A DNA stretch of 53,845 bases from a virus (taxonomy: Duplodnaviria; Caudoviricetes): the IMG/VR virus record IMGVR_UViG_3300033141_002656, positions 1-53,845 of that record; one strand, 5' to 3'. Within the stretch, counting starts at the first letter, position 1. Every line of letters begins with the position of its first letter. A program made the translations under genes and the position numbers. A model generated the notes under the pieces. That model had not been told where the DNA came from, ran no database searches, and saw nothing but the letters and a program-made list of their open reading frames with translations. This document shows positions 11,806 through 34,614 of the stretch, piece after piece.

Positions 11806-11995
11806 TGGCTGCTCTCACTTTGGCTTTTTCCTCACTGATTGTAACCCGTAGTTTGGCAGTTTCTAGCTGTTTTTCAAGTCCTGCTTTTTGACTTTTCAGC
11901 CTGCCATTCTCGGCAATGAGGTAAGCCGGTATCAACATCTCAATCAGACGCAATACCTGCAGGACAACTTGCAGCCATAGTATCTTAGATTTCAT
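11744..11995 (-). CDS. i-spanin-like membrane/coiled-coil protein
   Basis: Hydrophobic N-terminus then coiled coil; TAATG-coupled; lysis cluster. Confidence 0.55.
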   Translation of the reverse strand: MKSKILWLQVVLQVLRLIEMLIPAYLIAENGRLKSQKAGLEKQLETAKLRVTISEEKAKVRAANEGKSSRNIIDDFLGKSGQR

Positions 11996-12812: not shown

Positions 12813-12863
12813 CGGCCGGGACTCCCGGACATGGGTCTTCAGGAACAGTGTCCCGTCACCATC

Positions 12864-14880: not shown

Positions 14881-16077
14881 TTACGTGGTTTTTGTCCGAT
14901 ACATCATGAGGCTGGCTACCATTTTCCAGTCATGATCATCACCAATGGTCTGGCCCCTGAGCCTCATGAGCATGTTGTGGCCCATCCTGGAACTGTCATC
15001 TGTCATACAATCCTTACGGCCAGTACCCATGAGCAAACGCTCATACATGAAATTGAAAAGGACAACCTCAAGTGCAAACATGTTGAACTCTCCGGTACCA
15101 CCGGCATTGGGAGCAATGTTCTCGAATTGTTTGGTTGATGTGTTCCAGTCAGCATCCCAGTACCCGGCTGGCGTCTGGCCAAACTCATTAGGTGTGTTCT
15201 GCACCAAGACCCGGTCATTGTCTGCCACCGTGATGGCCCCATCCCCTGCAGCCGGGACGATAAGATATCCACCATACAGGTTGTAATTGGTGTTGGATCC
15301 TGCTGAGTATGCTGTGGTCTTGGGGACAATGCTGAACGTGGTGGCCATCACATCATCAGCCCCATCCTGGGACCACATGAGATCACCTTGCCTGATGTAA
15401 CTGATGTTGTTGATGGTGTTGAATGACAGCCTCAGATAGTGGACCTTGTCCCCGGTCACTGTCCCGGTGGCTGACTTTTCATCCTCATCATCACCAGTAT
15501 TGGGATAGCTGAAATGGGTGGCATCAATCTTGGTTACCACCACATCAGACTCATCATAGTCATCATCGGAACAATTCACGTCTATGATTGCCCCAGTCTC
15601 AAGCCCATGGGCAGCTGAGGTCTCAATGGTGGATACGTTTGAGGACCGTGCCACGTTGCTGATGTTCTTGGTTGACGCCACGTGCTCAAGTTCAATCCGG
15701 TTGCCACCACCACCCACAGCATGTGGATCATCTGGATCATCATCCCGCCCGGCAAAATAGGTGAACGTCCCTAAGTACCGTGGCGTGGTGTGGACAACGT
15801 CTCTTCCATCCGTATCACTAGGACATTCGCCACGGTTCTTGAGCCATTCAATCTGATCACTGAATGATGAAAAATATTCAGTGCCATTCCCAACTATCAG
15901 ATCACCATCAACTATCGCTGTGAGGACATCATCATTACTACCCCACTCAAGTCTCATGGGGTCAGGAATGATGTATTCCTCATTATTATCAAGCACTTTT
16001 ATGATAGACAGCTGAGATCCACTAACATTTTTGACTTGGCATAGATTCCAACTCATTCCTGTATCCTTGATATCCAA
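14881..16077 (-). CDS. Putative virion/tail-associated protein
   Basis: Acidic and beta-rich, with an inserted TSAAHGL..G...V.V...FSY module; start uncertain. Confidence 0.6.
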   Translation of the reverse strand: MDIKDTGMSWNLCQVKNVSGSQLSIIKVLDNNEEYIIPDPMRLEWGSNDDVLTAIVDGDLIVGNGTEYFSSFSDQIEWLKNRGECPSDTDGRDVVHTTPRYLGTFTYFAGRDDDPDDPHAVGGGGNRIELEHVASTKNISNVARSSNVSTIETSAAHGLETGAIIDVNCSDDDYDESDVVVTKIDATHFSYPNTGDDEDEKSATGTVTGDKVHYLRLSFNTINNISYIRQGDLMWSQDGADDVMATTFSIVPKTTAYSAGSNTNYNLYGGYLIVPAAGDGAITVADNDRVLVQNTPNEFGQTPAGYWDADWNTSTKQFENIAPNAGGTGEFNMFALEVVLFNFMYERLLMGTGRKDCMTDDSSRMGHNMLMRLRGQTIGDDHDWKMVASLMMYRTKTT

Positions 16078-16589
16078 AGGGTCATGGCCATATCACTGGG
16101 ATTAGTGCCCTGATCCTTGTGTAAAATACGGATCCAATCACCTGCCTCAAAGAACAGATCAACCTCAAGCTCATAGCCGTAATTATTTGGGGTATCTCTG
16201 AGTTGATATGTCCAGATAAGATTGCCGGCAGCTGTACCGTTCTTGTAAAATTCAAAATCAGAATCAATACTTGGGTCACTGTTTGCCCAGGTTAATTCAT
16301 TCAGCTTTGTCTTGACCGGGAAAACAATTTTAGCATCAGGGGTCAATGAGCTGTATGTCAACCAGTCATTATTTCCAAGAGTACCATTGTGGACAAGCAC
16401 AATCCCCGCCCGAGGGAAACCCTCAGCATTTTGCTTGGCCTCAACAATGGCATCATGGACATTGTCCGAAGTGAAATCATCATCAGAAAAAGGAACACCG
16501 TTGGCCTCTGGACTATGATGCCAGTCCCAGGGCTGGGCCTGGGCAGGTAGTGTAAAAATCAAACATAGCAATAGTTTTTTAAACATCAT
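16053..16589 (-). CDS. Signal-peptide-bearing fibre-like protein
   Basis: MFKKLLLCLIFTLPAQA|Q; fibre-type SDNVHDAIVE helix; beta-sandwich C-terminus. Confidence 0.7.
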   Translation of the reverse strand: MMFKKLLLCLIFTLPAQAQPWDWHHSPEANGVPFSDDDFTSDNVHDAIVEAKQNAEGFPRAGIVLVHNGTLGNNDWLTYSSLTPDAKIVFPVKTKLNELTWANSDPSIDSDFEFYKNGTAAGNLIWTYQLRDTPNNYGYELEVDLFFEAGDWIRILHKDQGTNPSDMAMTLWISRIQE

Positions 16590-16954
16590 TTCAGTTCCTG
16601 TACAATGATCTCATTGCCAGCTGATCCGGCTATCACATACACGGCCACATCTCCGATAGGGATCACGGCTATCTGCCTCTTGAACACCGGGATGCCCCTA
16701 GTTGATCCGGTAACCGTCACCCCGGTTGGACCGTAATAGACAGTGTTTGAACTGTCATTGTACAGCAGGACACGCTGTCTGTCAGGGTCCCTGGCGCCAC
16801 CCACCTTGAGTTCAACCTGAGTCACTCCCACGGTGATCACAGTGGATGAATACCCACGGTCATTCACATCAGCCCGGTCTGCATTGTAAGATATCTGCCC
16901 CAGGGATCCCTGGGCAAACAGAGCCAGGACCACCAGCAACATTAGCTTTTTCAT
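16586..16954 (-). CDS. Signal-peptide-bearing small beta-sandwich protein
   Basis: MKKLMLLVVLALFAQGSLG|Q; paralogous to the C-terminal domain of 17234-18109. Confidence 0.75.
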   Translation of the reverse strand: MKKLMLLVVLALFAQGSLGQISYNADRADVNDRGYSSTVITVGVTQVELKVGGARDPDRQRVLLYNDSSNTVYYGPTGVTVTGSTRGIPVFKRQIAVIPIGDVAVYVIAGSAGNEIIVQELK

Positions 16955-17217
16955 TTTTTGGCCTTATCTCTTGTGGGTTTGCGTTTGGGCTTGGGTGGTG
17001 GTGGGGTGACAGGTGGGGCCGGTGGCTCGGCCCCTTTTTCCTTTTCCTCTTTGAGGGCTGACCCAATCCTCTGTTCCAGTTGGTCAACCCAGGCCAGAAC
17101 CTGGGCAGCTGCCATGACTTCTAACCCCCCCTTGTAAGTGACAACTGCCTTGTTGATCAAGGCGCACAATTGCTCAGCCCTACGGGCATCACTTGCTGTC
17201 ACCTGAATCAGAGCCAT
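16951..17217 (-). CDS. Small helical protein with Pro/Lys tail (possible fibre chaperone)
   Basis: GGGGG RBS; 88 aa; function inferred from position. Confidence 0.6.
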   Translation of the reverse strand: MALIQVTASDARRAEQLCALINKAVVTYKGGLEVMAAAQVLAWVDQLEQRIGSALKEEKEKGAEPPAPPVTPPPPKPKRKPTRDKAKK

Positions 17218-17233
17218 GGCAACCCCCTAATGG

Positions 17234-18109
17234 TTAGGCCAGTTCCATGAACATCACGGATTGGCCGGCTTGTTCCCCGATGGCATACACCGGGATATTC
17301 TCCCCAAACTCAATGGTATCTGAACCACCCCTTGGGATCAACAGGCCAGCCGTGGCCCCTGAGGTTGTGACCGTGGACTTGCCAACCCAGATGTCCTTGG
17401 CTGACTGATTCTGGATCCTGATATACCGCCGGCCACCCAGGGCCCCACCGGAATCCAGCTGGACAGCCGTGGTCCCAACGGTAACCACTGCATGGTCCAA
17501 GGAAATATTGGGACTGCTGTTGATCCACTGCCGGCGGTACAGATCACTGATACCATCGGCCCGATCATCGGCAGCCGAGAGGGCAGTGAGGGCTGCATCT
17601 GTTGCCCGGAAACCGATCTTGACCGGATCCCCTGCATCAGCTGCATCATCAGCCACGTTGCCCTGAACGTCAACTGTTGCAGTGAATCCAGTGACATCCA
17701 CCTCAAGGCCATTGGCCGATCGGGTCAGCCGGTCCCAGGCAGAGCCGTCCCAGCCCATGAGATAGCTGTTGGTATCCAGGGCATGGACATTGGCCGGATC
17801 CACATTGTCAGAATCCGGGTTGTCTGCCGTGGGCCTCTGGTTCTGGTCAGTCTCATCCGGGCTGGCACCACGGTCATGAACAATGAGGCCAACGGAATCC
17901 GGGGTGGGATTGGTTGACACATCATAGTCACCATCAAGGTCACACTCAGCCGTGATGTCATTGCCCACATTGACATCAAGAGCAAGAACCCCACCACCCA
18001 GATCCGTTGAGGTCAGAGCATGGGATCCAGTTCTCAGATATGCAGCAACACTGTCACCCTTTGCGGGTGTGGTTGAGTCATATACTAAACGTCCTTTTCC
18101 AATAGGCAT
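17234..18109 (-). CDS. Putative virion fibre/decoration protein
   Basis: Asp-rich stalk with WDGSAWDR; C-terminal beta-sandwich. Confidence 0.65.
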   Translation of the reverse strand: MPIGKGRLVYDSTTPAKGDSVAAYLRTGSHALTSTDLGGGVLALDVNVGNDITAECDLDGDYDVSTNPTPDSVGLIVHDRGASPDETDQNQRPTADNPDSDNVDPANVHALDTNSYLMGWDGSAWDRLTRSANGLEVDVTGFTATVDVQGNVADDAADAGDPVKIGFRATDAALTALSAADDRADGISDLYRRQWINSSPNISLDHAVVTVGTTAVQLDSGGALGGRRYIRIQNQSAKDIWVGKSTVTTSGATAGLLIPRGGSDTIEFGENIPVYAIGEQAGQSVMFMELA

Positions 18110-18187
18110 GGTATCCCCCTTGGTGTTGAAAACAGAACAAACCCATGGAGGGACATCGGACAGAGATGATTGGGCTTTAGGAATTGA

Positions 18188-18571
18188 TTATGACCAGGTG
18201 ACTATCCGTGCAGTATCGTTTGGCTTATCGGACTGAAAGTTCAATGTGATGGACGCCGCTGGGTCAATGAATGAGATATGGTGATCTGCCCCTCGGGGTA
18301 TTTCAATGTCCTTTGTGCCCGTTGCCGTCCCCCAGTTCAGCAACATGTTGCCATGCTCTTTTAACTGGATCAGATACCGCTTGGTTCCGGCAGGCAGGAC
18401 ATAGGTGTAATTGTTGTTAGCCGTTGGCATTGAGACCTCATCGACACTGGCAGCTGTCACAAGCAAATCAGAAAAGTCAATGTCAGCCGTGAAATTGCCG
18501 GCAACATTCAGGGGATCAGCATCGGGACACTGCTTGATGGCCGTGACTGGCAGATGGATCACATTACCCAT
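18188..18571 (-). CDS. Small beta-sandwich protein (putative virion)
   Basis: Pattern similar to neighbours (RYLIQ...IPRG). Confidence 0.6.
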   Translation of the reverse strand: MGNVIHLPVTAIKQCPDADPLNVAGNFTADIDFSDLLVTAASVDEVSMPTANNNYTYVLPAGTKRYLIQLKEHGNMLLNWGTATGTKDIEIPRGADHHISFIDPAASITLNFQSDKPNDTARIVTWS

Positions 18572-18579
18572 TGCCTACC

Positions 18580-18963
18580 CTACCCCCCTTTTTTGCCCAG
18601 GGCGATGATGGTGAGAGTCCCCTGGGTGTTGCTGCCCTTGAGATATTTGACCAGACTGTACCGGTATCCCAGATATCCTAGGTTGAACATCTGGGTTTTC
18701 TCATTGCCAGTACTGCCATCCTCATCCATAACATGGGCCCCACAGTCCAGCTTGGCAAACGTGGCTGCATCCGGCCAGTTGCTTGCATACACCACAAGCT
18801 CACCATTAGTTTAATCATTACCAGACCACACAGCCTGGATGGACCCCACTACCATTTCCTTCCAGTCAATGATTTCCGTGGTGAAATCAGAACCCATCTC
18901 AGCCCCAGCCAGTGGGGTGATGTATGTACGGTGTACGTTCTGGGCTCTTTTGGGTACGGTCAT
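18580..18963 (-). pseudogene. Small beta-sandwich protein interrupted by in-frame TAA (18811-18813)
   Basis: MTVPKRA...SIQAVWSGND*TNGELVVYASN...YRYSLVKY...GTLTI; both halves are in one frame and fill the gap. Confidence 0.75.
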
Positions 18964-18970
18964 GGGTCAC

Positions 18971-19954
18971 CTAGTCTATGGTCCAAGTGAGTGTGATTTC
19001 CTGATCTAAACCAACATTGGTTGTTGAATCTGGGATAGATCCAGCATTGACAGTGTTGAACATTTCAATGGTTCCTGCGCTGGTGACCTTGAACCTGCGG
19101 GTGTCTTCAGTGTTATTGACCGTACCTACATCGATCATGTCTTTGGTTGACGGAGGCCGGAAGTCGGTAGGGGCAGCGTTAACCCAGGTTAGCTTCCCAG
19201 CTCCACTCTTTGTCCCTAGCACGGTGCTAGTGTTTGTGGCGAATACCACGTTACCAATACGATGGAATTCCCAGTTGACCGTGGGAGAACCAGAAAGGCC
19301 AGTAGTCGCAACGGCATTATTTTCTTCGCTGTGGTAAAAGTTCAAGGTTGCGTTTCCAGTCCCAAGGACGATCCCGGTAGTGAATGTTTTTGTCCCACCG
19401 ATACTTTCAGCCCCGGTATCATTGACCTTGGCGTCAAGCTGGCCTTGGATATCTGCAGACACACCATCAAGATGCTGGAACTCAGTATTGCTAACAGTGC
19501 CATCGGCAAAATTGGCAGCATCAAGATTGGTTCCTAACTTAATGTTGGTAACCGCCCCAGTGTCAATCTCAGATGATTGTACAGCATTGGGGGCAATCTC
19601 TGAGCTATCCACTGAATTGGCAGCAAGATCATCAGCCGTGATGCTGTTGTCTGTAATTACCCCGCCTGCCCCACCAGACACTGCCCCGGCTGTCTCAATC
19701 TTGTTGTCCTTGAGCGTAACACCGTCAACGGTAACGCCGGCCGCTGCCGTTAGTTCGTCAACCGTGTCGACCTGCAACTTGCCGTCATGCGTAACCTTGG
19801 CACTCGTCGTATCGGCCGACCCCCCTGTCGGGTAGGTTTTAAAAACAATGCCAAACCCCTCGTAAATACTTTTTACCTCGCTGTCGCGCCCAGTCTGGGC
19901 AAGGGCGTATGCAGCAACAGCAATGCAAGCTATAATAATAAAATATTTTTTCAT
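18971..19954 (-). CDS. Signal-peptide-bearing tail-fibre-like protein
   Basis: MKKYFIIIACIAVAAYALA|Q; ITADDLAANSVDSSEI repeats, VSNTEFQHLDGVSADIQGQLDAK, IGGTKTF, RIGNVV head domain. Confidence 0.8.
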   Translation of the reverse strand: MKKYFIIIACIAVAAYALAQTGRDSEVKSIYEGFGIVFKTYPTGGSADTTSAKVTHDGKLQVDTVDELTAAAGVTVDGVTLKDNKIETAGAVSGGAGGVITDNSITADDLAANSVDSSEIAPNAVQSSEIDTGAVTNIKLGTNLDAANFADGTVSNTEFQHLDGVSADIQGQLDAKVNDTGAESIGGTKTFTTGIVLGTGNATLNFYHSEENNAVATTGLSGSPTVNWEFHRIGNVVFATNTSTVLGTKSGAGKLTWVNAAPTDFRPPSTKDMIDVGTVNNTEDTRRFKVTSAGTIEMFNTVNAGSIPDSTTNVGLDQEITLTWTID

Positions 19955-19968
19955 TATATCCCCCAAAA

Positions 19969-20979
19969 TTAGTACAATCTATGGCACCCACCCCGCCCAA
20001 TTCTGGTGAACCCTGATGTGTTTTTTAAGCATATTTCCTCATCAGTCCCCACTGATGCACACGTTGAAATCTCAAGACCACCAGCACTCAGTATTACGGC
20101 ACAACTGGCATGATCGGTACCGTCGCCAGCAACACCACACATTGAGCACGCAGCTGAACCTAGCTGAGATGTATTTGCCGCTGACTGAGCACAACACAAA
20201 TAGTGGGCATAACTGGCAAGGGTAGTATCATCTAATATTATAGCCTCACTGCCGTTGGCTATTGACCCTGTTGAAATCAAAATAGATCTAACAACAAAAT
20301 TACCAACAGAAATATTGCCGCTGTCTATTACACTGTTTTCAAAATGGACACCCTCTATTGTGACGCCATTGTTCAGTAAGCGCTCAACAATAGAATTTGT
20401 CTTTGTTGTGTTTGCCCTTACCTCACCACCACTATCTGTGGTGAAATGACCACCCCCAGTGATGTTAACACCAGCTGCTGATGTCACCTGAATCCCTCGG
20501 GTGAAATCTGGGGCAGCTGTATCATTCTCATTCACAATAGTATCAAATTGTCCGATGTCCCCCATTACCTGGTCACTGGCATCCACATCACCAGTCACTG
20601 CCACAGTACCAGTTGCACCCAGGCCATCGGGAAAACTGGGGGCCCCAGCCCCACCAGAGTTTGAGTAATTGTCAGCCCTAAACTCATCACCGGCTGACAA
20701 TGACACATGGTCAGACCGGACAGACATGGTGAGCCCATCACCATGGCTCATGAATATTGCGCCGGTCCCGGTACCGCTATTAACATAGACATGTTTCCCA
20801 GACCCATTGGCCGTGATAGTCACATTGTCATCATAAGTAATGTTTTTGATGGTCATAGTGGTTAGGTCAAGGGCCTGCATGATGGTTTCCCACCTGGATG
20901 AATCCGAGGTCTGAGCTAGGGCAAAATACCCACCCACCAAAGCCGATACAATTACAAAAGCTAATAAATTCTTAAGCAT
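19969..20979 (-). CDS. Signal-peptide-bearing tail-fibre-like protein with Cys-rich tip
   Basis: MLKNLLAFVIVSALVGGYFALA|Q; GAPSFPDG/AAPDFTRG and GVTIEGV repeats; eight Cys near the C-terminus. Confidence 0.75.
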   Translation of the reverse strand: MLKNLLAFVIVSALVGGYFALAQTSDSSRWETIMQALDLTTMTIKNITYDDNVTITANGSGKHVYVNSGTGTGAIFMSHGDGLTMSVRSDHVSLSAGDEFRADNYSNSGGAGAPSFPDGLGATGTVAVTGDVDASDQVMGDIGQFDTIVNENDTAAPDFTRGIQVTSAAGVNITGGGHFTTDSGGEVRANTTKTNSIVERLLNNGVTIEGVHFENSVIDSGNISVGNFVVRSILISTGSIANGSEAIILDDTTLASYAHYLCCAQSAANTSQLGSAACSMCGVAGDGTDHASCAVILSAGGLEISTCASVGTDEEICLKNTSGFTRIGRGGCHRLY

Positions 20980-22732
20980 AGATTCTGGTTCTCCATCCTT
21001 GTGCAGCATTGATGTAAGTGAATGTCACACCCCTCATTGTACCATCACATGTGAAATTGCTGGCAGCCCCGTTGATGTTCTTGGCGTTCCGGTCAATGGT
21101 CAGGTTGTTGGATCCCCAGGATCCCGTGGCATCGATGAACTCAACCTCATCCCCCTGCACCGGATTGGGCGGCAGGGTGTGAGTCAGGATGCCTGCATTG
21201 GTATCACTGAGGACCTTGTCCCAGATCTTGGCTGTGTATGCCGTGGCTATCAAATCAGTTGACTGTGAGCGGTTCGGATCGACAGCCAGAGCCATTGCCC
21301 CGATGGCCAGATAGATCCGTATGGGGTTGGCAGATGATGGGCTCAGGCTTGAGATATCGCCTCTCAGTTGCCGGGCTGGTGCCGGGCCTATCTTGATATA
21401 GTCGCCAACGTTGTGGATCGGGACCCAGTCCACACCATCATACCGCTGAATGATCATGGTCAGCGGGACATCAGCCAGGTTGGTGTCAATCGGGCTGGCC
21501 GGCAGGTTGGGATCACTGGTGAATGTTCGGTCAAAATACTCAACCGGAATGATGCTGGGTGTGATCCCAGTGTTGAGCAACTTGACCGTCACAGTATCCG
21601 TGAGGTTCAAGGAACTGAAATCATAGGTGAGAACATCCCTGGTCTTTTGGGTAACAAACTGAGACCCATCCAGCTGGTATTCATTGGCGCCATCATCATA
21701 GAACGCCACCCACTGCTGATCCTTGACCGGGATGTTCTTGTTGTGGGTGATGGTTCCCGTGGCCCCACCGAACCCGGTCACCGTGTCTGTCTCGGTGTAT
21801 GCCACCGGACTCACTGCCACCGGGGCATTGTCCTGGCGTTTCTGTGGGGTAGTCCCAAAGACCGTGGTAGACCAGGCTGCAGTTGCCCGGCGGACAAAGC
21901 CCAGGTACATGTACCGTGCCAGGTTGGTTGCATCCGGGGCCGTGGTCAACAGAACCAAGTTGGCCTCTTGGATCCCATACAGGTCTCTGTCTGCATCGGT
22001 GGTGATGGGGTAATTCAGGGTATTATCATCTATGTACAGGTAATAGGTGGTGTCATTGGTGGGGGATGATTCCAGGTTGTCCAAGTCAATATCAAGGTCC
22101 CCAAAAAAGTCTGTCTCTGCCGTACCGGACCCATCATAGGTTGCCAGCTGGCGGTTCCGGTTGTCTATCATATGACCACCCTTGATGGTGGTCTCACCCG
22201 TGGCTGCCACATCCTGGATCTTGAATGATGAGTCACCACTGGCACCGGGAACCCAGCCAGTCCCAGGCTCATAGACCAGGGCCTGCCCATCCTCTGGGGG
22301 TGTGGATAGATTCACATCAATGTGATCATCCAGGAACGTGGGAGCACACACCACAACCAGGGCAATGTCCTGGGCTGAGCCGGTGTTGTTGGTTACCCGG
22401 ACCTGGGTGGTGGTTGAGCCAGGGGTCGCCACAATGGTGAAATCATCCAGATCTGGGGTCCCACCAGTGACAATCCTGGTGAGTTCCCCAGTGCCTGTGT
22501 TCCGATTGAACAGGATCACCCTGAGATCAGAAAAGGCGATTTTGAAATTGTGGTCAAAATCCACAGAGGCAGAATCAGCCAGGGCATCCTCAGTGAAAAA
22601 CCGTGAGTTGTCATCATCACTAAGCTTTGTCCAGGCCGTCCTGACCTTGGTGTGTAAGTTGGTACCCCCATCATGATTGAAATCAGGATGTTCCAACTCA
22701 GAACGGCCAACGGTGGTGGTGGTCTCAGCCAT
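20972..22732 (-). CDS. Tail fibre/spike protein
   Basis: DVNLSTPPEDGQALVY..WVP and C-terminal TLP.NP..GD.V.FID..GSW..NNLTI.RN..NI.G domain; no signal peptide. Confidence 0.75.
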   Translation of the reverse strand: MAETTTTVGRSELEHPDFNHDGGTNLHTKVRTAWTKLSDDDNSRFFTEDALADSASVDFDHNFKIAFSDLRVILFNRNTGTGELTRIVTGGTPDLDDFTIVATPGSTTTQVRVTNNTGSAQDIALVVVCAPTFLDDHIDVNLSTPPEDGQALVYEPGTGWVPGASGDSSFKIQDVAATGETTIKGGHMIDNRNRQLATYDGSGTAETDFFGDLDIDLDNLESSPTNDTTYYLYIDDNTLNYPITTDADRDLYGIQEANLVLLTTAPDATNLARYMYLGFVRRATAAWSTTVFGTTPQKRQDNAPVAVSPVAYTETDTVTGFGGATGTITHNKNIPVKDQQWVAFYDDGANEYQLDGSQFVTQKTRDVLTYDFSSLNLTDTVTVKLLNTGITPSIIPVEYFDRTFTSDPNLPASPIDTNLADVPLTMIIQRYDGVDWVPIHNVGDYIKIGPAPARQLRGDISSLSPSSANPIRIYLAIGAMALAVDPNRSQSTDLIATAYTAKIWDKVLSDTNAGILTHTLPPNPVQGDEVEFIDATGSWGSNNLTIDRNAKNINGAASNFTCDGTMRGVTFTYINAAQGWRTRIYA

Positions 22733-23208: not shown

Positions 23209-23213
23209 TGATA

Positions 23214-23888: not shown

Positions 23889-23898
23889 GATGAACCCC

Positions 23899-25650: not shown

Positions 25651-26894
25651 TTTGATTCATCCCAATTCAGTTCAAGTGTTACATGCCAGTTGTCATCCTC
25701 AACCGAGTCACTGTTATGTGATTCCTCAGGCAAATCCACAAGTTTGCTGAACACTGCCAGGGCTGATGGTCTGGTGGGCCTCGGAATGATCAAGCACTTA
25801 AGGTCTGTCTTGGCACTGAGCATATAGTTCTCAAGGATCCGGTAGTTGGTTCCAAACCGGTTGAGTTCAGACCACCTGAGGCCCAGGATCTTGCGGGTTG
25901 CCCGGTCATTAGACACCGAGGTGAAACCCTCGGTTTCAAGGGTATCTTTGAAATGCCTACGGCCAAAGGTTGCCGGGTTGTCAAACTCAGCTGTTGGGCT
26001 CAGGATATTGGCCAGTCCGAACACAATGCACCCAATATACAGGTGATTGTCAGCATTTGCAGAATCCTCAATGATCAGTCTGCGGTATCGGTATGCACTG
26101 CTGGCCGGTGTGGGTTTGATCCAATACATATTGTCAAGCTCAGTGGTCAGAACCACCGATTCATCCACCGATGTCCATGAGGCTGAATTGCTGGCCTGGA
26201 ATGTTACCCTGGCACCCTTGGTGAAATTGTGTCCCAGGATTGCCAGAGTATCAACAAATGCATTGGTGATCCCGGTGTCACACCGGATTTCCCAGATAGC
26301 TGTCACACCATTTGCTGTCTGGGCCCTGTGTTCAATCAGGTCATTGTTCAGATTGCTGAGGTCACCAAGATCATCAGCGGCCATGGATTGCATTGATGTC
26401 CAGTTGTTCCCGCCCAGGGCTGGGGTTCCCCGGCTGATGAAATCACACAGGATCCTCAGCTGTGTAACATTGTACAGGACCCCATTGACCTGACAACTGA
26501 CAGCAATGGCTCTGGCCATATTGGCCTGCATACCAATGGCCTCATCATCCTTGATCACCATCTCAACTTGCATGCCGATGAACTCATCATCGGTGGCATC
26601 AACAATTTTCATCTCTGCCTGGGAACCGGTTGCCTTGTCCTTGGCAATGATCATGCTGGCTTGGGATCCCACAACATCAGTCCCAGCCGCCACCATCCCA
26701 GCCTGCATACCAATGAACTCATCATCTGTTGAGTCCACAATTTTCATCTCAGTCTGAACACCGATTTCCTCAGACCCATCAGTGATCATATCCACCTGCA
26801 TCCCGATGGCATTCTCTGCCCTACCTGCCAGGTATCCATAGGTGGTGTGGGCCAGGTAACCCTCAGATAGATATCCGTAATAAGTAATAGCCAT
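25647..26894 (-). CDS. Distal-tail-like protein with carbohydrate-binding-like domain and N-terminal repeats
   Basis: Directly after the tape measure; seven (I/V/T)GxQxxM repeats; AILGHNF...YRYRRLII.D. Confidence 0.65.
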   Translation of the reverse strand: MAITYYGYLSEGYLAHTTYGYLAGRAENAIGMQVDMITDGSEEIGVQTEMKIVDSTDDEFIGMQAGMVAAGTDVVGSQASMIIAKDKATGSQAEMKIVDATDDEFIGMQVEMVIKDDEAIGMQANMARAIAVSCQVNGVLYNVTQLRILCDFISRGTPALGGNNWTSMQSMAADDLGDLSNLNNDLIEHRAQTANGVTAIWEIRCDTGITNAFVDTLAILGHNFTKGARVTFQASNSASWTSVDESVVLTTELDNMYWIKPTPASSAYRYRRLIIEDSANADNHLYIGCIVFGLANILSPTAEFDNPATFGRRHFKDTLETEGFTSVSNDRATRKILGLRWSELNRFGTNYRILENYMLSAKTDLKCLIIPRPTRPSALAVFSKLVDLPEESHNSDSVEDDNWHVTLELNWDESK

Positions 26895-29800
26895 TAGACT
26901 GGGGTCCTCAAGCCGCGAGTTGATATCACTGACCGGCCCTCAAGGGATCGGCGTTTCAGATGCTTGTCAATCATCGGGATCAGCCTGGTTCTGACACCAG
27001 CCTCATCCATGCTGGTGGTCATGTTGATGGTCAGGTTGTACGTGTCCCCACCACCCATCCGGACATCAGCCCCATCATTGACGGCCTGCAGAGCCGGCAA
27101 GTTGGGCTGTACCCGGGACCGTTGGACAACAAACTCACCAGCCTCAGCACCAATGGGCACCACCCCACCACCAGCATATGCTGGGATCAAGCCGCCATCA
27201 TGGAACCGATTTGCCTCAAAGATCCTCATCATCAGTTCATTCATGACAAATTTACGGATCTTTTTCATGGCTGCCACAATATCCAGACCCTTGACGGTAT
27301 CAATGGCCTTTTGGGCCTCCTCTCCAATCTGCTCAACTGAGATGTTCTGAACATCAGCAATTGCCCCACCAACATCACCAGACACAACCTTACCAAGCGT
27401 ACCCCCCAAGCCAAACTTGGGGAGCTTGTTTCTGGAATCAATCAACCATTGGACAATCTTGCCAAGGACCGGATGCATGGTCACAGATCTTGGAATGAAT
27501 GCCTCACCAGGGGACACCATGGCAATGATTCTGTCATTGACCTCACTGTCTCCCTTGACTGCCGGCCTGCCAGGAATCACACCACCCTCAGCAAACTTGA
27601 GGAACGGAACATCAACATTGAGGGTTTTTTCAATGGTACCCTTGCCCCAGGCTGAATCAGGAACCTTGAATATCTTGTTGAAAAGAGTATCAATATTGAG
27701 ATCCTTGAATGCCCTAGTGACTATCCTACCAACACCCTCAAAGCCTTTTTTGATCGGGTTCCATATCATGTCACCCATCTTGGTGAACTGACTGAAATCA
27801 ATGGCGTCTGAAAATCCCTGCCATATTTTCTTGCCAATGTCCTTGATGGGACTGAGGATGTTGTCATCAATCCACTGCCAGGTGGATTTCAGCGTATTCC
27901 ATACCCCCTCAACAGAATCCATGAACCACTGGAATATTCCCTTGAGGACCTCCCACGTGGCCCCCAGGGCATCAACCACACCCATGAGGATCTGCTCTGC
28001 CACCTGAAACAAGGCTGTGGCAGCGTCAAGGAATGGGTTGAGGATGTTGTCCTTGATCCAGGTCCAGGCTGCTGTGAGCATATCCAGGAACGGCTGGATG
28101 ATGGTGTTCCAGATATGCAGCCATACCTCACGGAGCTTGGCCCAGGCTTTGGCAAACAGATCCGGGATCCGGTTGGTACTGGATGCAATGGCATTCCGGA
28201 TCCGGTCGGCAATGTCCATCCCACGGGCCGCAGCCTCAGCGTCCAGGACCTCAAACATCTGGGATGCTGACCGGCTGACCCGGTCACCCAGGTTCTGCAA
28301 TGCCTTTTCTGCATCACTGAAATCAAGCTCAGGCAGATCAAAGATGTCAGCCATGCCCAGGGCATTGGCAATGCTGTTGGCAATTTCCATAGCTCCCTGT
28401 TTGACACCCTCAAGGATGGCCGGCGGCAGTTCAGTCCACATGACTTTCATGAGTTCAAAAGCCAGCTTGGGGGCCTCAATGATTGCCCAGCGCATAAAGG
28501 CAATGGCTATCTTACTCTGGCGTGAGACCAGCCCCCGGACCAGGGCCGTGGCCAATTCCGGGATCCGAGCAATCAAGGCTGACATGGCCTTGGGGATACC
28601 CTCGGTTAGCAAATTAGAAAATGCCTGAGGTAACTTGATGAGCAAGCCCACAATGATGTCATTGAGCTTGTCACCTATGCCATCAATGATATTCGGAATG
28701 AATTCAGCAACAAAGCGTATCAATTCCTTGACTAGGTTTCTCATCACCTCAGTCAATCGCTTGGGCAGATCGGTCACTGATGATATCAGATCAGCTGCCT
28801 TTTGAATCAGATTGGGGATGGCATCAACCAGGGCCTGGGCAGCGTCAAGAACGGCATTGGCTGCAGTCACCGGGGCAAGGGCCACACTGGCCATAGCACC
28901 AGCCAGGGATGCTGCCCCAGCCAGTGGGGCAACGGCCTCAGCCATGCCAGCAGACGCTGCCTGAATATGCTGGGCAACACCAGACCCAAGGGTATCGCCG
29001 ATCTTTTGAATCTCATCCGGATCCACCAGGGCAGGCCGTCTGATAGCCCCAATCTGTTGTTCTGCTTGCTTTTGCAACAGGATGTCCTGTTGCCTGAGTT
29101 GTTCGGCCACCTCTTTGGTGAGTTTCTTTTCTGCCTTGAGCTTGTCGGCCATGAGCCTCAGTCGTGTCCTGTCATGATCAAGCTGCAACTGAATCTGTTG
29201 GATCTGGGACTTGCCAAACTTGTCAGCCTCAAGTTGCATTTGGGCTGTCTGGGCCCTCATCTGCTCAAGTAGTTGCAGGGCCTCTTTGTCTGTCTTGATC
29301 GGGGCCCCACCAGCTGCCTGGGCTGCAGCCTGACCGGCAACCTTGCCGGTTTTCTTGGCCTGGGCCTCTGCCTTTTTCATGCCGTCTGTGAGACCCGCAA
29401 CAAACTTGCCAATCTGGCCGGCAAAGCCAAAGTCAATGCCCTCGGCAGACTTTTCAAGTTGCTTGTCAATGACAGCTATCTCAGATTCAACCTGTTCAAA
29501 AGCCTTGAGGTTTTCAAGGTTCTTTTTCCGTTGTCTGTCAAGGGCCTCGTCAGATGCCAAGCCCATTGAGTTCAAGCCCTCAATGATACCCTCAACACCC
29601 ACACCAATTGCCAGAATCACACCACGGATAGTCCGCTCAACCCGCTTGGCCCACGCCACCAAGGCATCACCCACCATATCGCCAAGCTCATCAAGCCGGT
29701 CAAAATTCCTGATGAGGATATCAATGGCAGCTGCCACAGCCACCACTGACACACCAATAGCAACCACCTTGGCAGCCAGGATAGCTGCAGGGACAACAGC

Positions 29801-31117
29801 TGCCCCCAGCCATGTGGCCAATGCCTGGAACCCACCAACAATGATACCCAGATTGGTAACAATCATCGGGGCTACCATGATGGTTAGGGCCGTCGATATG
29901 ATGCCCACGGAGATGGCAATCTGATCCCAGTCCACAGCATCAAAGGCATCCCCCAGAGCCTTGACCAGCCTGCCTGCCTTTTCCAGGGCCACATTGAGCC
30001 CTTGGATGGCTGGCAACAGAACCACCAGGATCTGTTGACCGATTCGGGTCAATGCTGCCTGGGCCTGACCGGCTGCCTTGCTCAATTGAAAATCAGCTGT
30101 CTGGGCGATTTTCTGAAATGCCTCATCAGTGACTGACCCAGCCTTGTCAGCTGCAGCTGCCATGTCATCCATGGTGGCAATGAATGTCTTGTTGATGGAC
30201 TCAGAGGTGAATGCCGTGATGGCCGGCAGGGCCTCGACTGATCCAAACAGTTCCTTGATGGCCGTGGCTGAACTGCCACCCTCTCTGGTGATGGCCTTGA
30301 GAGTCCCGACAAAGCCCAGCTGTTGGACGGCAGCCTCAGCTGATTCAAAGCCCAGCCTGTTATACACGTCCTTGAGGGCCTCTGTGGGCTGTGTCAGGGC
30401 AACCATTGCCGCCCGGACAGCAGTGGTTGCCACCTGGGTATTCCGTGAGACTGTGGCCACGTTTGACACCGTGGCTACCAGTTCCTCAAGGTCCACACCC
30501 AGCACTGCAGCTGTACCAGCTGCCTGACCGATCTGGGCCGAGAGTTCCCCAATGGTGGTCTGGCCACGTTTCATGCCGATGAACAGGATGTCTGAGATAC
30601 GGGCTGAATCATCAGCGCTCATGCTGTACACCTGCATGAGCTTTGTCAGACCACCGATTGCCGTGGTGAGATTGGTGACACCACCAATGGCCAGTTTCTG
30701 GGCAGATTGTAAGAGGGTCATGGCATTGCTGGAATCAACGGCACCAGAGGACAGGGCCTGATAGAATGCCTTGGCTTTGTCTGCCTGATCCCCGCCAAAT
30801 TGGGCTTGCAGGTCAAGGACCTGTTCCGTGAACTGTTCCTGGGCCCCAGCTGCATCACTGACTAGGGTGGTAACCTCAGCCACCTCTTTTTGCAGCCTGA
30901 TGGCTGAGCCCACCGTGGCATCAATACCCTGGTTGAACTTGTTGATGACCCTGCCGGCCAGTTCCCAGGTCTGGTTCAGTGTGACCACGGTGGCCTGGAC
31001 TTTGCTGAATCCCTGGACAAGAGACTTGCCGCGTTTCTCAAGGCGCTTGAGGGCCTGTTCAGCGCGGTCCTCAACCCCAATGGGGATGACATGTTCATCT
31101 GATGTTGTGACTGCCAT
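26894..31117 (-). CDS. Tape measure protein
   Basis: 1407 aa, Ala-rich helical; TP901-like GQTTIGELS core, periodic Trp repeats, FAEGG and FHDGG motifs. Confidence 0.95.
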   Translation of the reverse strand: MAVTTSDEHVIPIGVEDRAEQALKRLEKRGKSLVQGFSKVQATVVTLNQTWELAGRVINKFNQGIDATVGSAIRLQKEVAEVTTLVSDAAGAQEQFTEQVLDLQAQFGGDQADKAKAFYQALSSGAVDSSNAMTLLQSAQKLAIGGVTNLTTAIGGLTKLMQVYSMSADDSARISDILFIGMKRGQTTIGELSAQIGQAAGTAAVLGVDLEELVATVSNVATVSRNTQVATTAVRAAMVALTQPTEALKDVYNRLGFESAEAAVQQLGFVGTLKAITREGGSSATAIKELFGSVEALPAITAFTSESINKTFIATMDDMAAAADKAGSVTDEAFQKIAQTADFQLSKAAGQAQAALTRIGQQILVVLLPAIQGLNVALEKAGRLVKALGDAFDAVDWDQIAISVGIISTALTIMVAPMIVTNLGIIVGGFQALATWLGAAVVPAAILAAKVVAIGVSVVAVAAAIDILIRNFDRLDELGDMVGDALVAWAKRVERTIRGVILAIGVGVEGIIEGLNSMGLASDEALDRQRKKNLENLKAFEQVESEIAVIDKQLEKSAEGIDFGFAGQIGKFVAGLTDGMKKAEAQAKKTGKVAGQAAAQAAGGAPIKTDKEALQLLEQMRAQTAQMQLEADKFGKSQIQQIQLQLDHDRTRLRLMADKLKAEKKLTKEVAEQLRQQDILLQKQAEQQIGAIRRPALVDPDEIQKIGDTLGSGVAQHIQAASAGMAEAVAPLAGAASLAGAMASVALAPVTAANAVLDAAQALVDAIPNLIQKAADLISSVTDLPKRLTEVMRNLVKELIRFVAEFIPNIIDGIGDKLNDIIVGLLIKLPQAFSNLLTEGIPKAMSALIARIPELATALVRGLVSRQSKIAIAFMRWAIIEAPKLAFELMKVMWTELPPAILEGVKQGAMEIANSIANALGMADIFDLPELDFSDAEKALQNLGDRVSRSASQMFEVLDAEAAARGMDIADRIRNAIASSTNRIPDLFAKAWAKLREVWLHIWNTIIQPFLDMLTAAWTWIKDNILNPFLDAATALFQVAEQILMGVVDALGATWEVLKGIFQWFMDSVEGVWNTLKSTWQWIDDNILSPIKDIGKKIWQGFSDAIDFSQFTKMGDMIWNPIKKGFEGVGRIVTRAFKDLNIDTLFNKIFKVPDSAWGKGTIEKTLNVDVPFLKFAEGGVIPGRPAVKGDSEVNDRIIAMVSPGEAFIPRSVTMHPVLGKIVQWLIDSRNKLPKFGLGGTLGKVVSGDVGGAIADVQNISVEQIGEEAQKAIDTVKGLDIVAAMKKIRKFVMNELMMRIFEANRFHDGGLIPAYAGGGVVPIGAEAGEFVVQRSRVQPNLPALQAVNDGADVRMGGGDTYNLTINMTTSMDEAGVRTRLIPMIDKHLKRRSLEGRSVISTRGLRTPV

Positions 31118-31560
31118 TACCTACCCTTACCCTTTTTGCCACCAAAGAGAGCCGAGAACATCTTGCCAAATTGTTTCAGAATCTCGGGTGAGAACTCACC
31201 CACGTCCCGCCACACACGGGCATATTGCCGTTCCTGCCACCTCTCGACAAAAACGGGATACACCTCTGTGAACAACTCGGGCTGGTCATCAAGACCACCG
31301 GGCCCAGGCAGGTGGCCGGTGATCTGCGATACACGGCATTGGTTGAATAGGTTGGTAATGGTGGGGTTCCAGGTAGCCTTACCAGGACAGAACCTGAACT
31401 TGACACCCTGGTCATCAACCCTGTGATACTTGCCGGGCGGTAGGTTGTCATGACCAGGTTCCTGGCACCTACGCTGTATCTTTGTTGATTCCCGGCACTT
31501 ATCACAGCTGAATCTCTTACGGTCTTTTGCACTGGCCCATGACAGGTCAACCAGTGCCAT
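31117..31560 (-). CDS. Tail assembly chaperone, frameshift extension (gpT-like)
   Basis: In the -1 frame after the slippery site; GHLPGPGGLDDQP motif; precedes the tape measure. Confidence 0.8.
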   Translation of the reverse strand: MALVDLSWASAKDRKRFSCDKCRESTKIQRRCQEPGHDNLPPGKYHRVDDQGVKFRFCPGKATWNPTITNLFNQCRVSQITGHLPGPGGLDDQPELFTEVYPVFVERWQERQYARVWRDVGEFSPEILKQFGKMFSALFGGKKGKGR

Positions 31561-31562
31561 GA

Positions 31563-32060
31563 TCAGTTTTTTGAGTTTGCAACCTCATCTTTGTCAGGTT
31601 CTATGAGGTTATTGTACACCTGCAGGATTTCCTGGGCAATGCCCAGCCTCTCAAGGAATGTCATTGTGTCATCATGGACATACCCCCTACCGTCCTTACG
31701 GAACGTGATAGTGTCCTTGACGTTTGGGGGATTCTGGATGTCCTTGATGGCATACTTGGCCACCATGTAAGCCCACCGGCCCATGCTGATCTTTGGGCTA
31801 TTGTCGTCCACATCAAAGCCCTTGAGCATAGCATCCTTGATATTGGCCTGTTCTTTTCCGGTGAACTCAAAGTTGCAGACAAAGACTGTGGGCTGCATCT
31901 CAGGTTTGAACTTGAGCAAGCTCTCATGCTTTTGGGGATCTTGCTGATAGCGCTCCCACTTTTCTTTGAACTCAGGATCATCCTTATCAAGGGCACCATC
32001 CCTCACAGAGATTACCCGGATTGAATTGAGTTTCCGGATCTGATTGACGGTAATAGCCAT
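31563..32060 (-). CDS. Tail assembly chaperone (gpG-like)
   Basis: Between tail tube and tape measure; ends TCA AAA AAC TGA. Confidence 0.8.
   Translation of the reverse strand: MAITVNQIRKLNSIRVISVRDGALDKDDPEFKEKWERYQQDPQKHESLLKFKPEMQPTVFVCNFEFTGKEQANIKDAMLKGFDVDDNSPKISMGRWAYMVAKYAIKDIQNPPNVKDTITFRKDGRGYVHDDTMTFLERLGIAQEILQVYNNLIEPDKDEVANSKN
31566..31572 (-). other. -1 programmed frameshift site A-AAA-AAC
   Basis: The -1 frame reads K-L-I-M-A-L-V-D into 31117-31560. Confidence 0.85.
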
Positions 32061-32105
32061 GTGTCTCACTCCCTTTTGATTGGTTCTGTTTCAGTGATAT
32101 CAAAG

Positions 32106-32137
32106 AAAACCCCCCTTGACCAGAGGCCAAGGGGGGG
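32106..32137 (-). terminator. Intrinsic terminator after tail tube gene
   Basis: CCCCCCTTGG-CCTCTGG-TCAAGGGGGG followed by TTTT. Confidence 0.75.
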
Positions 32138-32178
32138 CGTCCCCTCACACGCGACTCTCCCCATTAGGGCAAAAGGCG

Positions 32179-33783
32179 TTACAACCATTCAACACTGATC
32201 GGATCCCGGGCACCCGGGGCCGATTGATAAAAGTTACCTTCCATTGAGATGCTGGTAGTTCCTGACTCGGGCACGTCAATGGGTGGTATGGATGGGATCC
32301 ACTTTGGTGCAGTGATCTTGAGATATCGGCCAGTTGCCGAGTCACCCAAGATGATTTCCGGAGCAAATCCAGAAAACTCGCGGGCCTGGACCAGATCACC
32401 CAGGTTCTCATTGGACAGGTCAAACTCAACCGTAAGTGTCCCCGTTGCCCGGTTGCCGGCAACAAAGCCCACGTTGGCATCCCGCCCAAACCGGTTGTCA
32501 AGGTCCACATGATCATTGGCAAAAGCCAAAGTGATCTGGGTGGTATCGATGACAGAACCGGAACTGTTGAACTTGAATGAACCCTCAAGGTCAGTGTACG
32601 GATTGTCCCTGCCAGTTTGCTGGATGGCCCCAGGATGCCAGAACACCAGGAACCCATCATCCTCAGCATCCACCGTGGTTGACAAGACAACTTCATCAGT
32701 CGCCACACTGATGCTGTCAATGGTCAGAGACCCATCAGCACCAGCTGTGATGGTCCTGCCATCGGCGCCCACAATCATCACCGGGGGCTGACCATAGAAC
32801 CGTTTAGCATGGTCAGTGTTCAGGGTGACTGTTGCTGATCCCGATACCAACCCATCAATCTGGCCGATGCCAGCCATATTTGCCTTGGCTGCCTTGCCGG
32901 TGAACTTCATGGTGGCCTCGGACTCACCCGGCAGAGTCAGAGTGAAATCACGGCAATAGGCCCCAGTGTAATACTCGGCAAAGATGGTTGAGACCCGGAC
33001 CATGGAGAACGTGAAATTGGGCAAACCCTGGGTGTACTTGATACTCTGGCTGGCCGTGACGGTCTCGGTGCCAAAGATGGATTCAAGTAACAACATCAGG
33101 GCAGCATCGATGGATGCCCCTGCAGAACCGGACATATTCACCAGGGTGTCAATGTCAAACTCGGCAACCTTTTTGCGTTTCAGGACGCCAGTATGGAACC
33201 GGCCAGTTCTGTGTGGATTGGATTCAACCGGTTGCTCAAATGTGGGCCCGCCAGTTGTGTACAGCAGAAAATCCTGGTCATCGGTTCCGGCAGTCTCGGT
33301 CCCACCGTTTGCCGTGCCCAACTTGAGATCATCTGCCACGTTGTCAGCTGTGGCATCAGTGATCACCACAGATGATGTTGTTCCGGTGAATTGAGAATAG
33401 ACCTCATAGTGGTCATCCCCACCATCAAAATCAACCCAGACACGTCCATCTTGCGCGGCTGCAGCCAAAGCTGTATTGATCTGTGTCTCAAGCTCCGTTG
33501 CAATTGCTGCACCGGTTGTCAAGCCGGCCAGCGTTAAGGTCACATCAACAACGGTCCCACCATCAACAGCCACCTTGAGGGAATCATCCGTTCCCGCTGA
33601 GATGTCTGTTGAGGCTGCAGTATCCCCAACAGAGGAACCCTGGGTTCCAATCCTGGGGGCAATGAATGTCCGTTGTGTTGCTTCCTTACGCACAAAGACA
33701 GACCCATCCAGACCTACGTTGAAACCCTCTTTGTCTCCTTCAAAGACCTGCAGGAAATCAACCTTTGATCTGTACTTGGCCAT
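32179..33783 (-). CDS. Major tail tube protein with inserted ~120-aa domain
   Basis: Between tail terminator and chaperones; followed by a terminator; insertion at about residues 48-168. Confidence 0.85.
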   Translation of the reverse strand: MAKYRSKVDFLQVFEGDKEGFNVGLDGSVFVRKEATQRTFIAPRIGTQGSSVGDTAASTDISAGTDDSLKVAVDGGTVVDVTLTLAGLTTGAAIATELETQINTALAAAAQDGRVWVDFDGGDDHYEVYSQFTGTTSSVVITDATADNVADDLKLGTANGGTETAGTDDQDFLLYTTGGPTFEQPVESNPHRTGRFHTGVLKRKKVAEFDIDTLVNMSGSAGASIDAALMLLLESIFGTETVTASQSIKYTQGLPNFTFSMVRVSTIFAEYYTGAYCRDFTLTLPGESEATMKFTGKAAKANMAGIGQIDGLVSGSATVTLNTDHAKRFYGQPPVMIVGADGRTITAGADGSLTIDSISVATDEVVLSTTVDAEDDGFLVFWHPGAIQQTGRDNPYTDLEGSFKFNSSGSVIDTTQITLAFANDHVDLDNRFGRDANVGFVAGNRATGTLTVEFDLSNENLGDLVQAREFSGFAPEIILGDSATGRYLKITAPKWIPSIPPIDVPESGTTSISMEGNFYQSAPGARDPISVEWL

Positions 33784-33854
33784 CTATATATCCCCTCTTG
33801 TTAAGTTCATGAAAAGCCCTGTTTGCAATCCTCAGGGGGTATTCTAACTCCCTG

Positions 33855-34601
33855 TCACTGTCGCCATTGAATAACAACGTATCCGGTATCCTCAACCGAG
33901 GCTACCACATTGGTATCCTTGAGGGTCTTGGGACTGCAGTTGCTGCAAGCATGACAATCACCAGCTGCCAGCCTGATCCCATCACTGGACGGGTCAGCGT
34001 TCTTGGACACTGCCAGGTACCCGCCATTGGCCGCACTGCCTGAGACCTCGGTCCCACCATTGGCGGTACCGATCTTTAGGTCATCAGCCACGTTATTGGC
34101 TGCACCATCGGCAATGGCCACAGTTGAGGATGTCCCTGTAAGTCTCGAATAGATCTCGTAATGATCATCCGAGTCATCAAAGATGACAGAGACCGCACCA
34201 CCCTCAGCGGCAATCGCGGCATTGATGCCTGTTTCCATTGCTGCAGCAATCAGGGCCCCTGTATTGAGACTGGCCACAGTCAGAGTGACATCAACCTGGG
34301 TACCCCCATCAACCGTGACTTTGAATGTGGTATCCGTGCCACCAGAGATGTCCGTTGATGCAGATGCTGCACCAATTGAGGAACCCTGGGTTGCAGAAAC
34401 AGCATCCATGCAGATGGCCCAGCTGAGCAGATTTCCGCCCACCGAGGCTGCAGCAATGGCATCCTGGGCAGTGAGTCCGGCGGACCCACGAGCATACTCA
34501 ATCCGGCCAGTTCTTGTGTTCGCAAAGAAAACCTGAGCAGTTGCCAGTGATGCAAACAACATCCCGGCTGTTAACAAAAGAATTCCAACAACTCTGTTCA
34601 T
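33855..34601 (-). CDS. Signal-peptide-bearing protein carrying a copy of the tail-tube insertion domain
   Basis: MNRVVGILLLTAGMLFASLATA|Q; QGSSIG...NVADDLKIGTANGGTE aligns with the tube protein. Confidence 0.85.
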   Translation of the reverse strand: MNRVVGILLLTAGMLFASLATAQVFFANTRTGRIEYARGSAGLTAQDAIAAASVGGNLLSWAICMDAVSATQGSSIGAASASTDISGGTDTTFKVTVDGGTQVDVTLTVASLNTGALIAAAMETGINAAIAAEGGAVSVIFDDSDDHYEIYSRLTGTSSTVAIADGAANNVADDLKIGTANGGTEVSGSAANGGYLAVSKNADPSSDGIRLAAGDCHACSNCSPKTLKDTNVVASVEDTGYVVIQWRQ

Positions 34602-34614
34602 GATGAACCCCCTG

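Follow-up and report, generated by a model that had tools for sequence, protein, structure and literature searches.

By the textbook account, tailed-phage virions are made in the cytoplasm. The exported proteins that some of these phages encode beside their receptor-binding genes, namely Llp of T5, Cor of phi80 and T1, and Lom and Bor of lambda, are small, have no relation to virion proteins and do not form trimeric fibres. They carry a Sec or lipoprotein signal, lie in or next to the fibre region and are expressed as late genes. Here we describe a phage genome (Duplodnaviria; Caudoviricetes), the whole IMG/VR record IMGVR_UViG_3300033141_002656 of 53,845 bases (hereafter the window), in which five genes of the tail region begin with a predicted Sec signal peptide (leader) followed directly by Gln. 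These five proteins resemble the known exported proteins in signal, location and late expression, and the other three respects set the known ones apart; no Pfam, PHROG or NCBIfam match assigned any of them to an Llp/Cor/Lom-type family. The best reading we can offer, about as probable as its negation, is that they are outer appendages exported through Sec which would join the particles at lysis.

Gln at this position is the published Q-rule and is not new; it is a host signature rather than a new signal. According to Bochtler et al. (2018; PMC5837995), an average of 71% of signal-peptidase-I substrates in Bacteroidetes expose Gln, which is cyclised to pyroglutamate, and the Q-value exceeds 48% in 332 of 334 Bacteroidetes species. 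Some cyanobacteria, Ignavibacterium and a few organisms resembling Chlorobi are given high Q-values too. PMC10653852 likewise concerns Sec and signal-peptidase-I substrates under the Q-rule. The window proteins share with the Bacteroidetes substrates an n-h-c leader, a small-x-small site and Gln at +1 (6 of 7 leaders, beside the published species mean), and differ in being phage proteins whose host is not identified. Phage genes that obey the Q-rule have been described as well: five were found in Porphyromonas gingivalis phages and were read as use of host secretion (Matrishin et al., 2023; PMC10367356). Those phages are temperate, the function of the genes was not assigned and modification of the host surface was proposed; fibre-like folds, family history and position in a tail module are not among the points reported in the portion of that paper available to us.

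Cultured look-alikes exist among the Cellulophaga phages. In the GenBank record of phi18:3 (KC821620), 12 proteins are annotated as 'structural protein, experimental MS/MS' (tandem mass spectrometry), and three of them, gp085, gp086 and gp087, have leaders ending in YS/Q, SA/Q and NA/Q. All four of the proteins gp101-104 of phi19:1 (KC821607), which bear the same annotation, have leaders too, followed by Gln in three and by Lys in one, so that 6 of the 7 leader-bearing structural proteins of the two phages have Gln at +1. As in the window, a run of consecutive late genes beside membrane or lysis genes carries Sec leaders with mostly Gln at +1; the differences are that the sequences show no similarity and that virion status there comes from record annotation. 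The MS/MS-annotated structural proteins gp59-61 of phi18:1 (KC821619) lack leaders, and thus the habit is not universal in Cellulophaga phages. The larger leader-bearing proteins of the group are named pectate lyase in RefSeq. The leader and first 118 residues of gp086 (L050:34544-36898) are 82-83% identical in phi10:1, phi19:1, phi19:3 and phi13:2 while the rest of the protein differs, and this N-terminus looks like an exported module shared across phage genera and families. The literature searches made here found no publication discussing leaders of Cellulophaga phage structural proteins or leaders on tail fibres. phi19:1 and phi18:3 offer cultured systems for a direct test.

The five genes of the window had been singled out by an earlier sequence-only reading, and the open reading frames (ORFs), the leaders and the Gln that follows them were all found as it had described:

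16053-16589, minus strand: 178-amino-acid (aa) protein (F178), leader MMFKKLLLCLIFTLPAQA, AQA then QPWDW
16586-16954, minus strand: 122-aa protein (F122), leader MKKLMLLVVLALFAQGSLG, SLG then QISYN
18971-19954 (ORF to 19966), minus strand: 327-aa fibre-like protein, leader MKKYFIIIACIAVAAYALA, ALA then QTGRD
19969-20979 (ORF to 21009), minus strand: 336-aa orphan protein, leader MLKNLLAFVIVSALVGGYFALA, ALA then QTSDS
33855-34601, minus strand: 248-aa protein, leader MNRVVGILLLTAGMLFASLATA, ATA then QVFF

Our leader calls rest on a crude rule of our own (charge of the n-region, a 9-residue hydrophobic window and a -3/-1 site), on reading by eye and on conservation in relatives, and cleavage sites were read by eye with the -3/-1 rule. 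By rule and eye, the named genes have the tripartite structure of a leader, with a basic n-region, a hydrophobic h-region and a polar c-region ending in small residues at -3 and -1. The rule was passed by 8 of 57 accepted genes as against 6 of 225 ORFs of at least 60 aa in other frames, and Gln follows the last small-x-small site in five of those eight genes and in none of the six off-frame ORFs. Counted over the genome, Gln stands at +1 in all five named genes and in 6 of the 7 leaders that are not lipoprotein signals; the sixth belongs to the holin-like gene at 11995-12351, whose ALG/Q site is outside the range of the rule and was counted by eye, in agreement with the earlier description of IALG followed by Q. 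Two more leaders, beyond those listed earlier, are found at 11455-11805 (Asp at +1) and 13189-14079 (a lipoprotein).

The start codons agree with these leaders. Each of the starts at 19954, 34601 and 12351, which include the leader, is preceded at 5-12 nt by a G-rich Shine-Dalgarno-like motif. Among the in-frame starts that lie beyond the hydrophobic segments, only codon 64 of 16053-16589 has one, and translation from there would truncate the conserved body of the protein. In 18971-19954, codons 2-59 contain no start codon at all. True starts downstream of the hydrophobic segments, which the sequence-only reading had named as a refuting case, were thus not seen on inspection of start codons and upstream motifs. 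In place of GGAGG, the ribosome-binding motif frequently takes the form of a G run (GGGGG or GGGGGT), for example at 19955-19975, 34602-34620 and 12352-12370, and GGGG occurs upstream of 11 of 56 genes versus a background of 6.7%. Whether homologues keep the signal had been proposed as a check, and orthologues do retain it, with drifting leader sequences and sites reading NVYA/Q in P0003, LGQA/Q in P0166 and ALG/Q in a 270-aa protein of L001.

F178 and F122 belong to a module of conserved gene order, and their family history is the main new point of the analysis:

14881-18571, minus strand: module F127-F291-F88-F122-F178-F398, with leaders on F122 and F178 only

The leader-bearing genes are interleaved with leaderless structural genes in the gene map, as the earlier description had it. 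The F178 family comprises 109 members of near length, counting F178 itself; leaders are present in 11 of them and absent from 98. An alignment of the 101 members that measure 140-190 aa shows the leader as an N-terminal addition to the body: the stretch before the conserved part lengthens from a mean of 13.7 to 31.3 residues. A Cys pair is present in 4 of 10 leader-bearing members and in 0 of 91 leaderless ones (Fisher 5e-5). A tree computed after removal of the leader columns requires five changes of leader state, at least three of them on well-supported branches. We scanned IMG/VR for F178 and analysed 31 of the 33 loci, L008-L038, leaving out L039 and L040 as partial matches. F178 has a leader in three of the 31 (L017, L020 and L035), and in each of these the upstream gene at the F122 position also has one. 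When L038, which lacks the upstream gene, was dropped and the window added, giving 31 genomes with 25 distinct sequences, the leader states of the two genes always agreed: both genes have a leader in four genomes and neither has in 27. The four paired-leader genomes lie apart from one another on the best tree, requiring four changes, two of them on well-supported branches. This pattern is suggestive of the two leaders having been gained together in a normally leaderless module, and such paired gains would amount to a natural experiment, in which the same protein with the same neighbours takes a different route.

The mature parts had been described as tail-fibre repeats or small beta-sandwiches, which held for F178, F122 and the fibre-like protein at 18971-19954. 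The AlphaFold model of F178 (94 sequences, pLDDT 88.6) is a TNF/C1q-like jelly roll, a knob of trimer type. Foldseek matched it to phage tail and spike knobs, 4-1BBL and C1q in the PDB (E 1e-4 to 1e-3) and, among viral models, to knobs of collagen-repeat fibres and to minor tail proteins, the TM-scores being modest at 0.3-0.6. F178 thus shares a predicted fold with the knobs of the cyanophage A4 tail, the phi812 central spike and the Agrobacterium phage 7-7-1 fibre, at TM-scores of only 0.3-0.5; known knobs of this type sit at the tip of a long fibre or spike, whereas F178 is a stand-alone protein of 160 residues with a leader. It has no match in 50,697 GenBank phages and no sequence relative in the PDB. 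F122 is modeled as a small 8-strand jelly roll (pLDDT 88.3), and the leaderless 291-aa protein encoded at 17234-18109 ends in a paralogous domain (residues 208-290, 33% identity, 1e-8). The fold matches of F122 to Ena subunits and cupins are weak (TM about 0.4-0.5) and serve as a lead only; the best PDB match is the subunit of the Bacillus endospore appendage Ena, a disulfide-linked pilus (E 3.5e-4, TM about 0.4). The module holds three paralogous copies of the F122 domain (F127, the C-terminus of F291 and F122), which together with the Ena match raises the idea of a polymerising fibre, as far as predicted folds can suggest one.

The module consists of six small beta-rich proteins whose gene order is conserved in many IMG/VR contigs, often with a C92 peptidase after it, in uncultured phages of 30-51% G+C. 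None of its proteins in the window matches a Pfam, PHROG or NCBIfam family, and those of relatives match no PHROG except for one marginal tail-fibre match. In L020 and L026 the module directly follows capsid or portal genes, not fibres. Upstream of F127, a 71-aa ORF (18580-18795, minus strand) matches by eye the C-terminus of a 127-aa gene, L017:504-887, and the gene at this place may be longer than the listed ORF or have a different start.

In the fibre region, the named genes follow a leaderless fibre gene at the site of distal fibre genes:

20972-22732, minus strand: leaderless 586-aa fibre protein with a conserved N-terminal anchor domain (tail-fibre PHROG matches)

The first approximately 120 residues of this protein are 54-57% identical in the IMG/VR relatives L001 and L004-L006 and 50% identical in L007 while the rest varies, a pattern to be expected of a domain that attaches to the particle. 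Among the five named proteins, none has a recognisable docking domain. The 327-aa protein encoded at 18971-19954 matches phrog_892, a tail fibre (PHROG 892; 1.3e-4), and has repeats and a C-terminal globular part. Through the repeats it gave 1407 phmmer matches in a representative library. Among the best 150 of these, query included, 25 have leader-like N-termini by our hydrophobicity rule, nine of them with Gln after a small residue by eye, and the others are mostly long leaderless fibres. Its 270-aa homologue in L001 lies directly after the anchor-domain fibre and has a different leader (ALG then Q); in the same slot, L004, L005 and L007 encode leaderless fibres of 557-678 aa. GenBank phages yielded one weak match, in a Pelagibacter phage. 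The adjacent 336-aa protein encoded at 19969-20979 has no homologue at near length among 5.8 billion proteins, and its mature part contains eight Cys, most of them in the C-terminal 80 residues.

The anchor-domain fibre is leaderless in six relatives and carries a leader in one, the complete 56,171-base genome G002, whose tail-tip protein, 221-aa protein and major-tail-like protein are 59%, 66% and 67% identical to those of the window. The G002 fibre (L054:6575-9259, 894 aa), 41% identical over the anchor domain, begins MRVFRFVILATLLTFVFG then HT; GAGGAG lies 8 nt upstream of this 17-residue hydrophobic extension, and no start codon other than this one precedes the anchor domain. If the anchor domain docks to the baseplate, then in G002 a protein predicted to be exported must reach the particle. 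G002 also has leaders on its homologues of the 122-, 178-, 116- and 248-aa proteins, and Gln stands at +1 in none of its seven leaders (sites by eye) compared with six of seven in the window. The +1 residue therefore tracks the genome, which fits selection by the peptidase and cyclase system of the host. Because the residue after the leader is not Gln in L020, L035 and G002, the leader habit extends beyond Q-rule hosts, and this residue, Gln or not, could serve as a cheap host marker for uncultured phages.

The host of the window phage itself is unproven. Shine-Dalgarno-like motifs precede 31 of 56 window genes and are frequent in relatives too, which is unlike Bacteroidia and Flavobacteriia. 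The Bacteroidota promoter consensus occurs at chance level (1 versus 0.71 expected and 18 versus 17.8). A scan of bacterial genome contigs with the portal gave no match, the sole match of the anchor domain in bacterial genomes was a phage-like contig in a Cyanobacteriota-labelled metagenome-assembled genome, and a search of a protein atlas returned viral clusters only, with no lead to a host.

The fifth named gene has taken up part of its neighbour, which occupies the position of the major tail protein between a tail-terminator-like gene and the chaperone-like and tape-measure genes:

32179-33783, minus strand: leaderless 534-aa protein in the major-tail-protein position by gene order, source of the decoration domain

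Residues 71-189 of the 248-aa protein are 64% identical (3e-42) to residues 47-167 of the 534-aa protein, and a small Cys-bearing core is thus interrupted by a decoration-domain copy of about 110-120 aa. The orthologue P0003, 62% identical, keeps the leader (NVYA/Q) and four Cys, and L041, a part of G002, has in this slot a tandem of three paralogues, all with leaders, of which two lack the inserted domain. All five members of the family have a leader and an invariant CxxCxxC. Judged from these sequences, the family is accessory, always exported and variable in copy number, and it has captured the exposed domain of its neighbour. The decoration domain (STDISGGTD...NVADDLKLG.ANGGTE; noted also for P0012 and P0013) is common to leaderless phage tail proteins and to the variable region of FlgL in Syntrophomonadaceae.

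Leader anatomy, start codons, conservation, the switching of the +1 residue by genome, the Cys pair and the paired gains all favor genuine export, and the named proteins are very probably exported by Sec. Handled by the Sec translocon and signal peptidase I of a host that would itself obey the Q-rule, they would acquire a new N-terminal Gln that is presumably cyclised to pyroglutamate. They would be outer host-recognition parts of the particle: fibres, a decoration-type protein, and a trimeric knob of TNF/C1q-like fold together with a jelly-roll partner. Their folding would take place in the periplasm at the same time as heads and tails are assembled in the cytoplasm, and the two would meet only once the lysis cassette opens the envelope. 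The sequence-only reading had left three fates open, namely periplasmic maturation with joining at lysis, receptor-blocking decoys and adhesins displayed on the host, and the evidence leans towards the first. Late joining is favored because F122 and F178 are single-copy orthologues of leaderless proteins, because the anchor-domain fibre of G002 has a leader, and because the Cellulophaga proteins are annotated as structural.

Several points weigh against late joining of exported parts. We know of no tailed phage that adds Sec-exported parts to its virion, and for the window phage we infer export, cleavage, pyroglutamate formation and late attachment alike from sequence. With relatedness controlled, the paired leader switch comes down to two to four independent pairs and is not significant; these are too few for a sign test, so that paired gain is suggestive, not proven. 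The Cellulophaga proteins have no sequence similarity to those of the window, and their MS/MS annotation, which stands at record level only, may reflect co-purifying envelope material. The 248-aa family behaves as an accessory insert: the window has a single copy and L041 has three, the slot is empty in L042 and L043, and P0003 is known as a protein only. Such patchy distribution is true of 33855-34601 and not of F122 and F178, whose module is widely conserved. Cys enrichment was also rejected as a general reason for export: it is patchy, the mature named proteins containing eight and four Cys in two cases and none in the other three. Membership of the class of Bacteroidota periplasmic O-glycoproteins was considered as well and rejected. 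The site motif of that class, D-(S/T)-(A/I/L/V/M/T), is not enriched: per 100 aa, the mature forms of the five proteins have 0.63 sites and 15 leaderless structural proteins have 0.64.

The alternative that survives best, possible though on balance unlikely, is that the proteins are exported accessories outside the virion, which would act in or on the envelope of the infected cell or after release, by masking receptors, blocking superinfection or soaking up receptor-bearing debris. The 248-aa family would suit this role, since its leader is constant, its copy number varies and it has copied an exposed tail domain, as a competitor or mimic would; the orphan at 19969-20979 is likewise what fast-evolving accessory genes often are, and the site beside the fibre genes is that of known exported accessory genes. 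F178 and F122 are harder to accommodate, because no leaderless twin is left to serve the particle in their place, and the same difficulty arises with the anchor-domain fibre of G002 and with the look-alikes annotated as virion-found in Cellulophaga phages. Five or more trimer-type fibre or knob proteins would also be many for exclusion, and none of the 55 ORFs scanned belongs to an integrase or repressor family, which makes long-term exclusion in a lysogen unlikely. Late fitting of appendages and exported helpers could both be true, for different genes.

It is improbable that the proteins are adhesins which the infected cell or its vesicles display or shed to alter adhesion, with no role in the particle or in exclusion. 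The leader-bearing relatives of 18971-19954, about 25 of the best 150 that share its repeats, are often very long and look cell-encoded, and the decoration domain of the 248-aa protein recurs in the flagellar FlgL, both of which would fit adhesins. However, neither a type IX C-terminal sorting domain (no Pfam or NCBIfam match of the Por_Secre_tail type at E up to 0.01) nor another surface-sorting signal was found, so that exported proteins would stay periplasmic; moreover, the phage looks virulent, and the history of the F178 and F122 families is tied to phage structural neighbourhoods. The worst fit, and the least probable of all, is that the hydrophobic N-termini stay uncleaved as inner-membrane anchors holding fibres during assembly or as harmless extensions, for although two leaders have uncharged stretches of 18-19 residues and the holin-like protein puts its ALG-Q stretch on a membrane helix, a canonical small-x-small site ends every leader, the residue behind it switches as a set from Gln in the window to others in G002, the Cys pair is confined to leader-bearing F178 members, and leaders seem to have been gained in pairs.

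Beyond the window, we put forward tentatively, at somewhat short of an even chance, that a sizeable set of tailed phages routes its outermost recognition parts, namely anchor-domain fibres, decoration proteins and stand-alone TNF-like knobs paired with a jelly roll, via Sec and fits them to the finished particles at lysis, with repeated linked switches in both Q-rule and non-Q-rule hosts. The route would then be a second, general mode of assembly and no peculiarity of Bacteroidota. Leaders on fibre-like phage proteins are present in public records, and literature searches found no paper describing them. What appears to be new, from comparison of the sequences, is that a module which normally has no leaders gained them repeatedly and in linked genes, with and without Gln. 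The capture of a domain by the 248-aa family appears new as well, and so does the leader-bearing anchor-domain fibre of the close relative G002. If export and late fitting are true, outer fibres and knobs can hold disulfides, a blocked N-terminus and perhaps host modifications, the final assembly step takes place outside the cell, contrary to textbook phage assembly, and leaders matter for host-range engineering, recombinant fibre expression and the prediction of structural proteins.

The remainder of the genome is that of a tailed phage with nearly all genes on the minus strand. The first 114 bases of the single contig are identical to the last 114, which indicates that the genome is complete and circularly closed. 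A prohead protease, a capsid protein, a head-tail adaptor and a Neck1-type protein were also identified by Pfam and PHROGs, and since the same scan found no sheath, the phage is siphovirus-like. No cultured relative was found, the large terminase (TerL) being less than 30% identical to the closest of the 50,697 GenBank phages. The other features are as follows:

42452-44113, minus strand: large terminase (Pfam/PHROGs)
40085-42448, minus strand: portal and Mu-F-like head morphogenesis domain fused in one 787-aa ORF (Pfam/PHROGs)
26894-31117, minus strand: tape measure, 1407 aa (Pfam/PHROGs)
11455-13265, minus strand: lysis region, comprising the 116-aa protein, the 118-aa holin-like protein, an M15 peptidase endolysin and a 133-aa membrane and coiled-coil protein
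11455-11805, minus strand: 116-aa protein, leader site VSA/D (LVSA then D), C-terminal membrane helix
11995-12351, minus strand: 118-aa holin-like protein, TAIALG then QP, second membrane helix
13189-14079, minus strand: 296-aa lipoprotein, FLGC then S

The 296-aa lipoprotein has a predicted (alpha/alpha)6-barrel-like fold near models of glycoside hydrolases and terpenoid-cyclase-like proteins, and its lipoprotein state is kept in the homologues of L003, L006, L017 and G002. On the strength of this model, it may be an exported polysaccharide-cleaving enzyme. Elsewhere in the genome, an 848-aa Toprim-containing replication protein (3-2546, minus strand), which runs off the end of the window, contains an intein made up of a Hint domain and a LAGLIDADG homing endonuclease.

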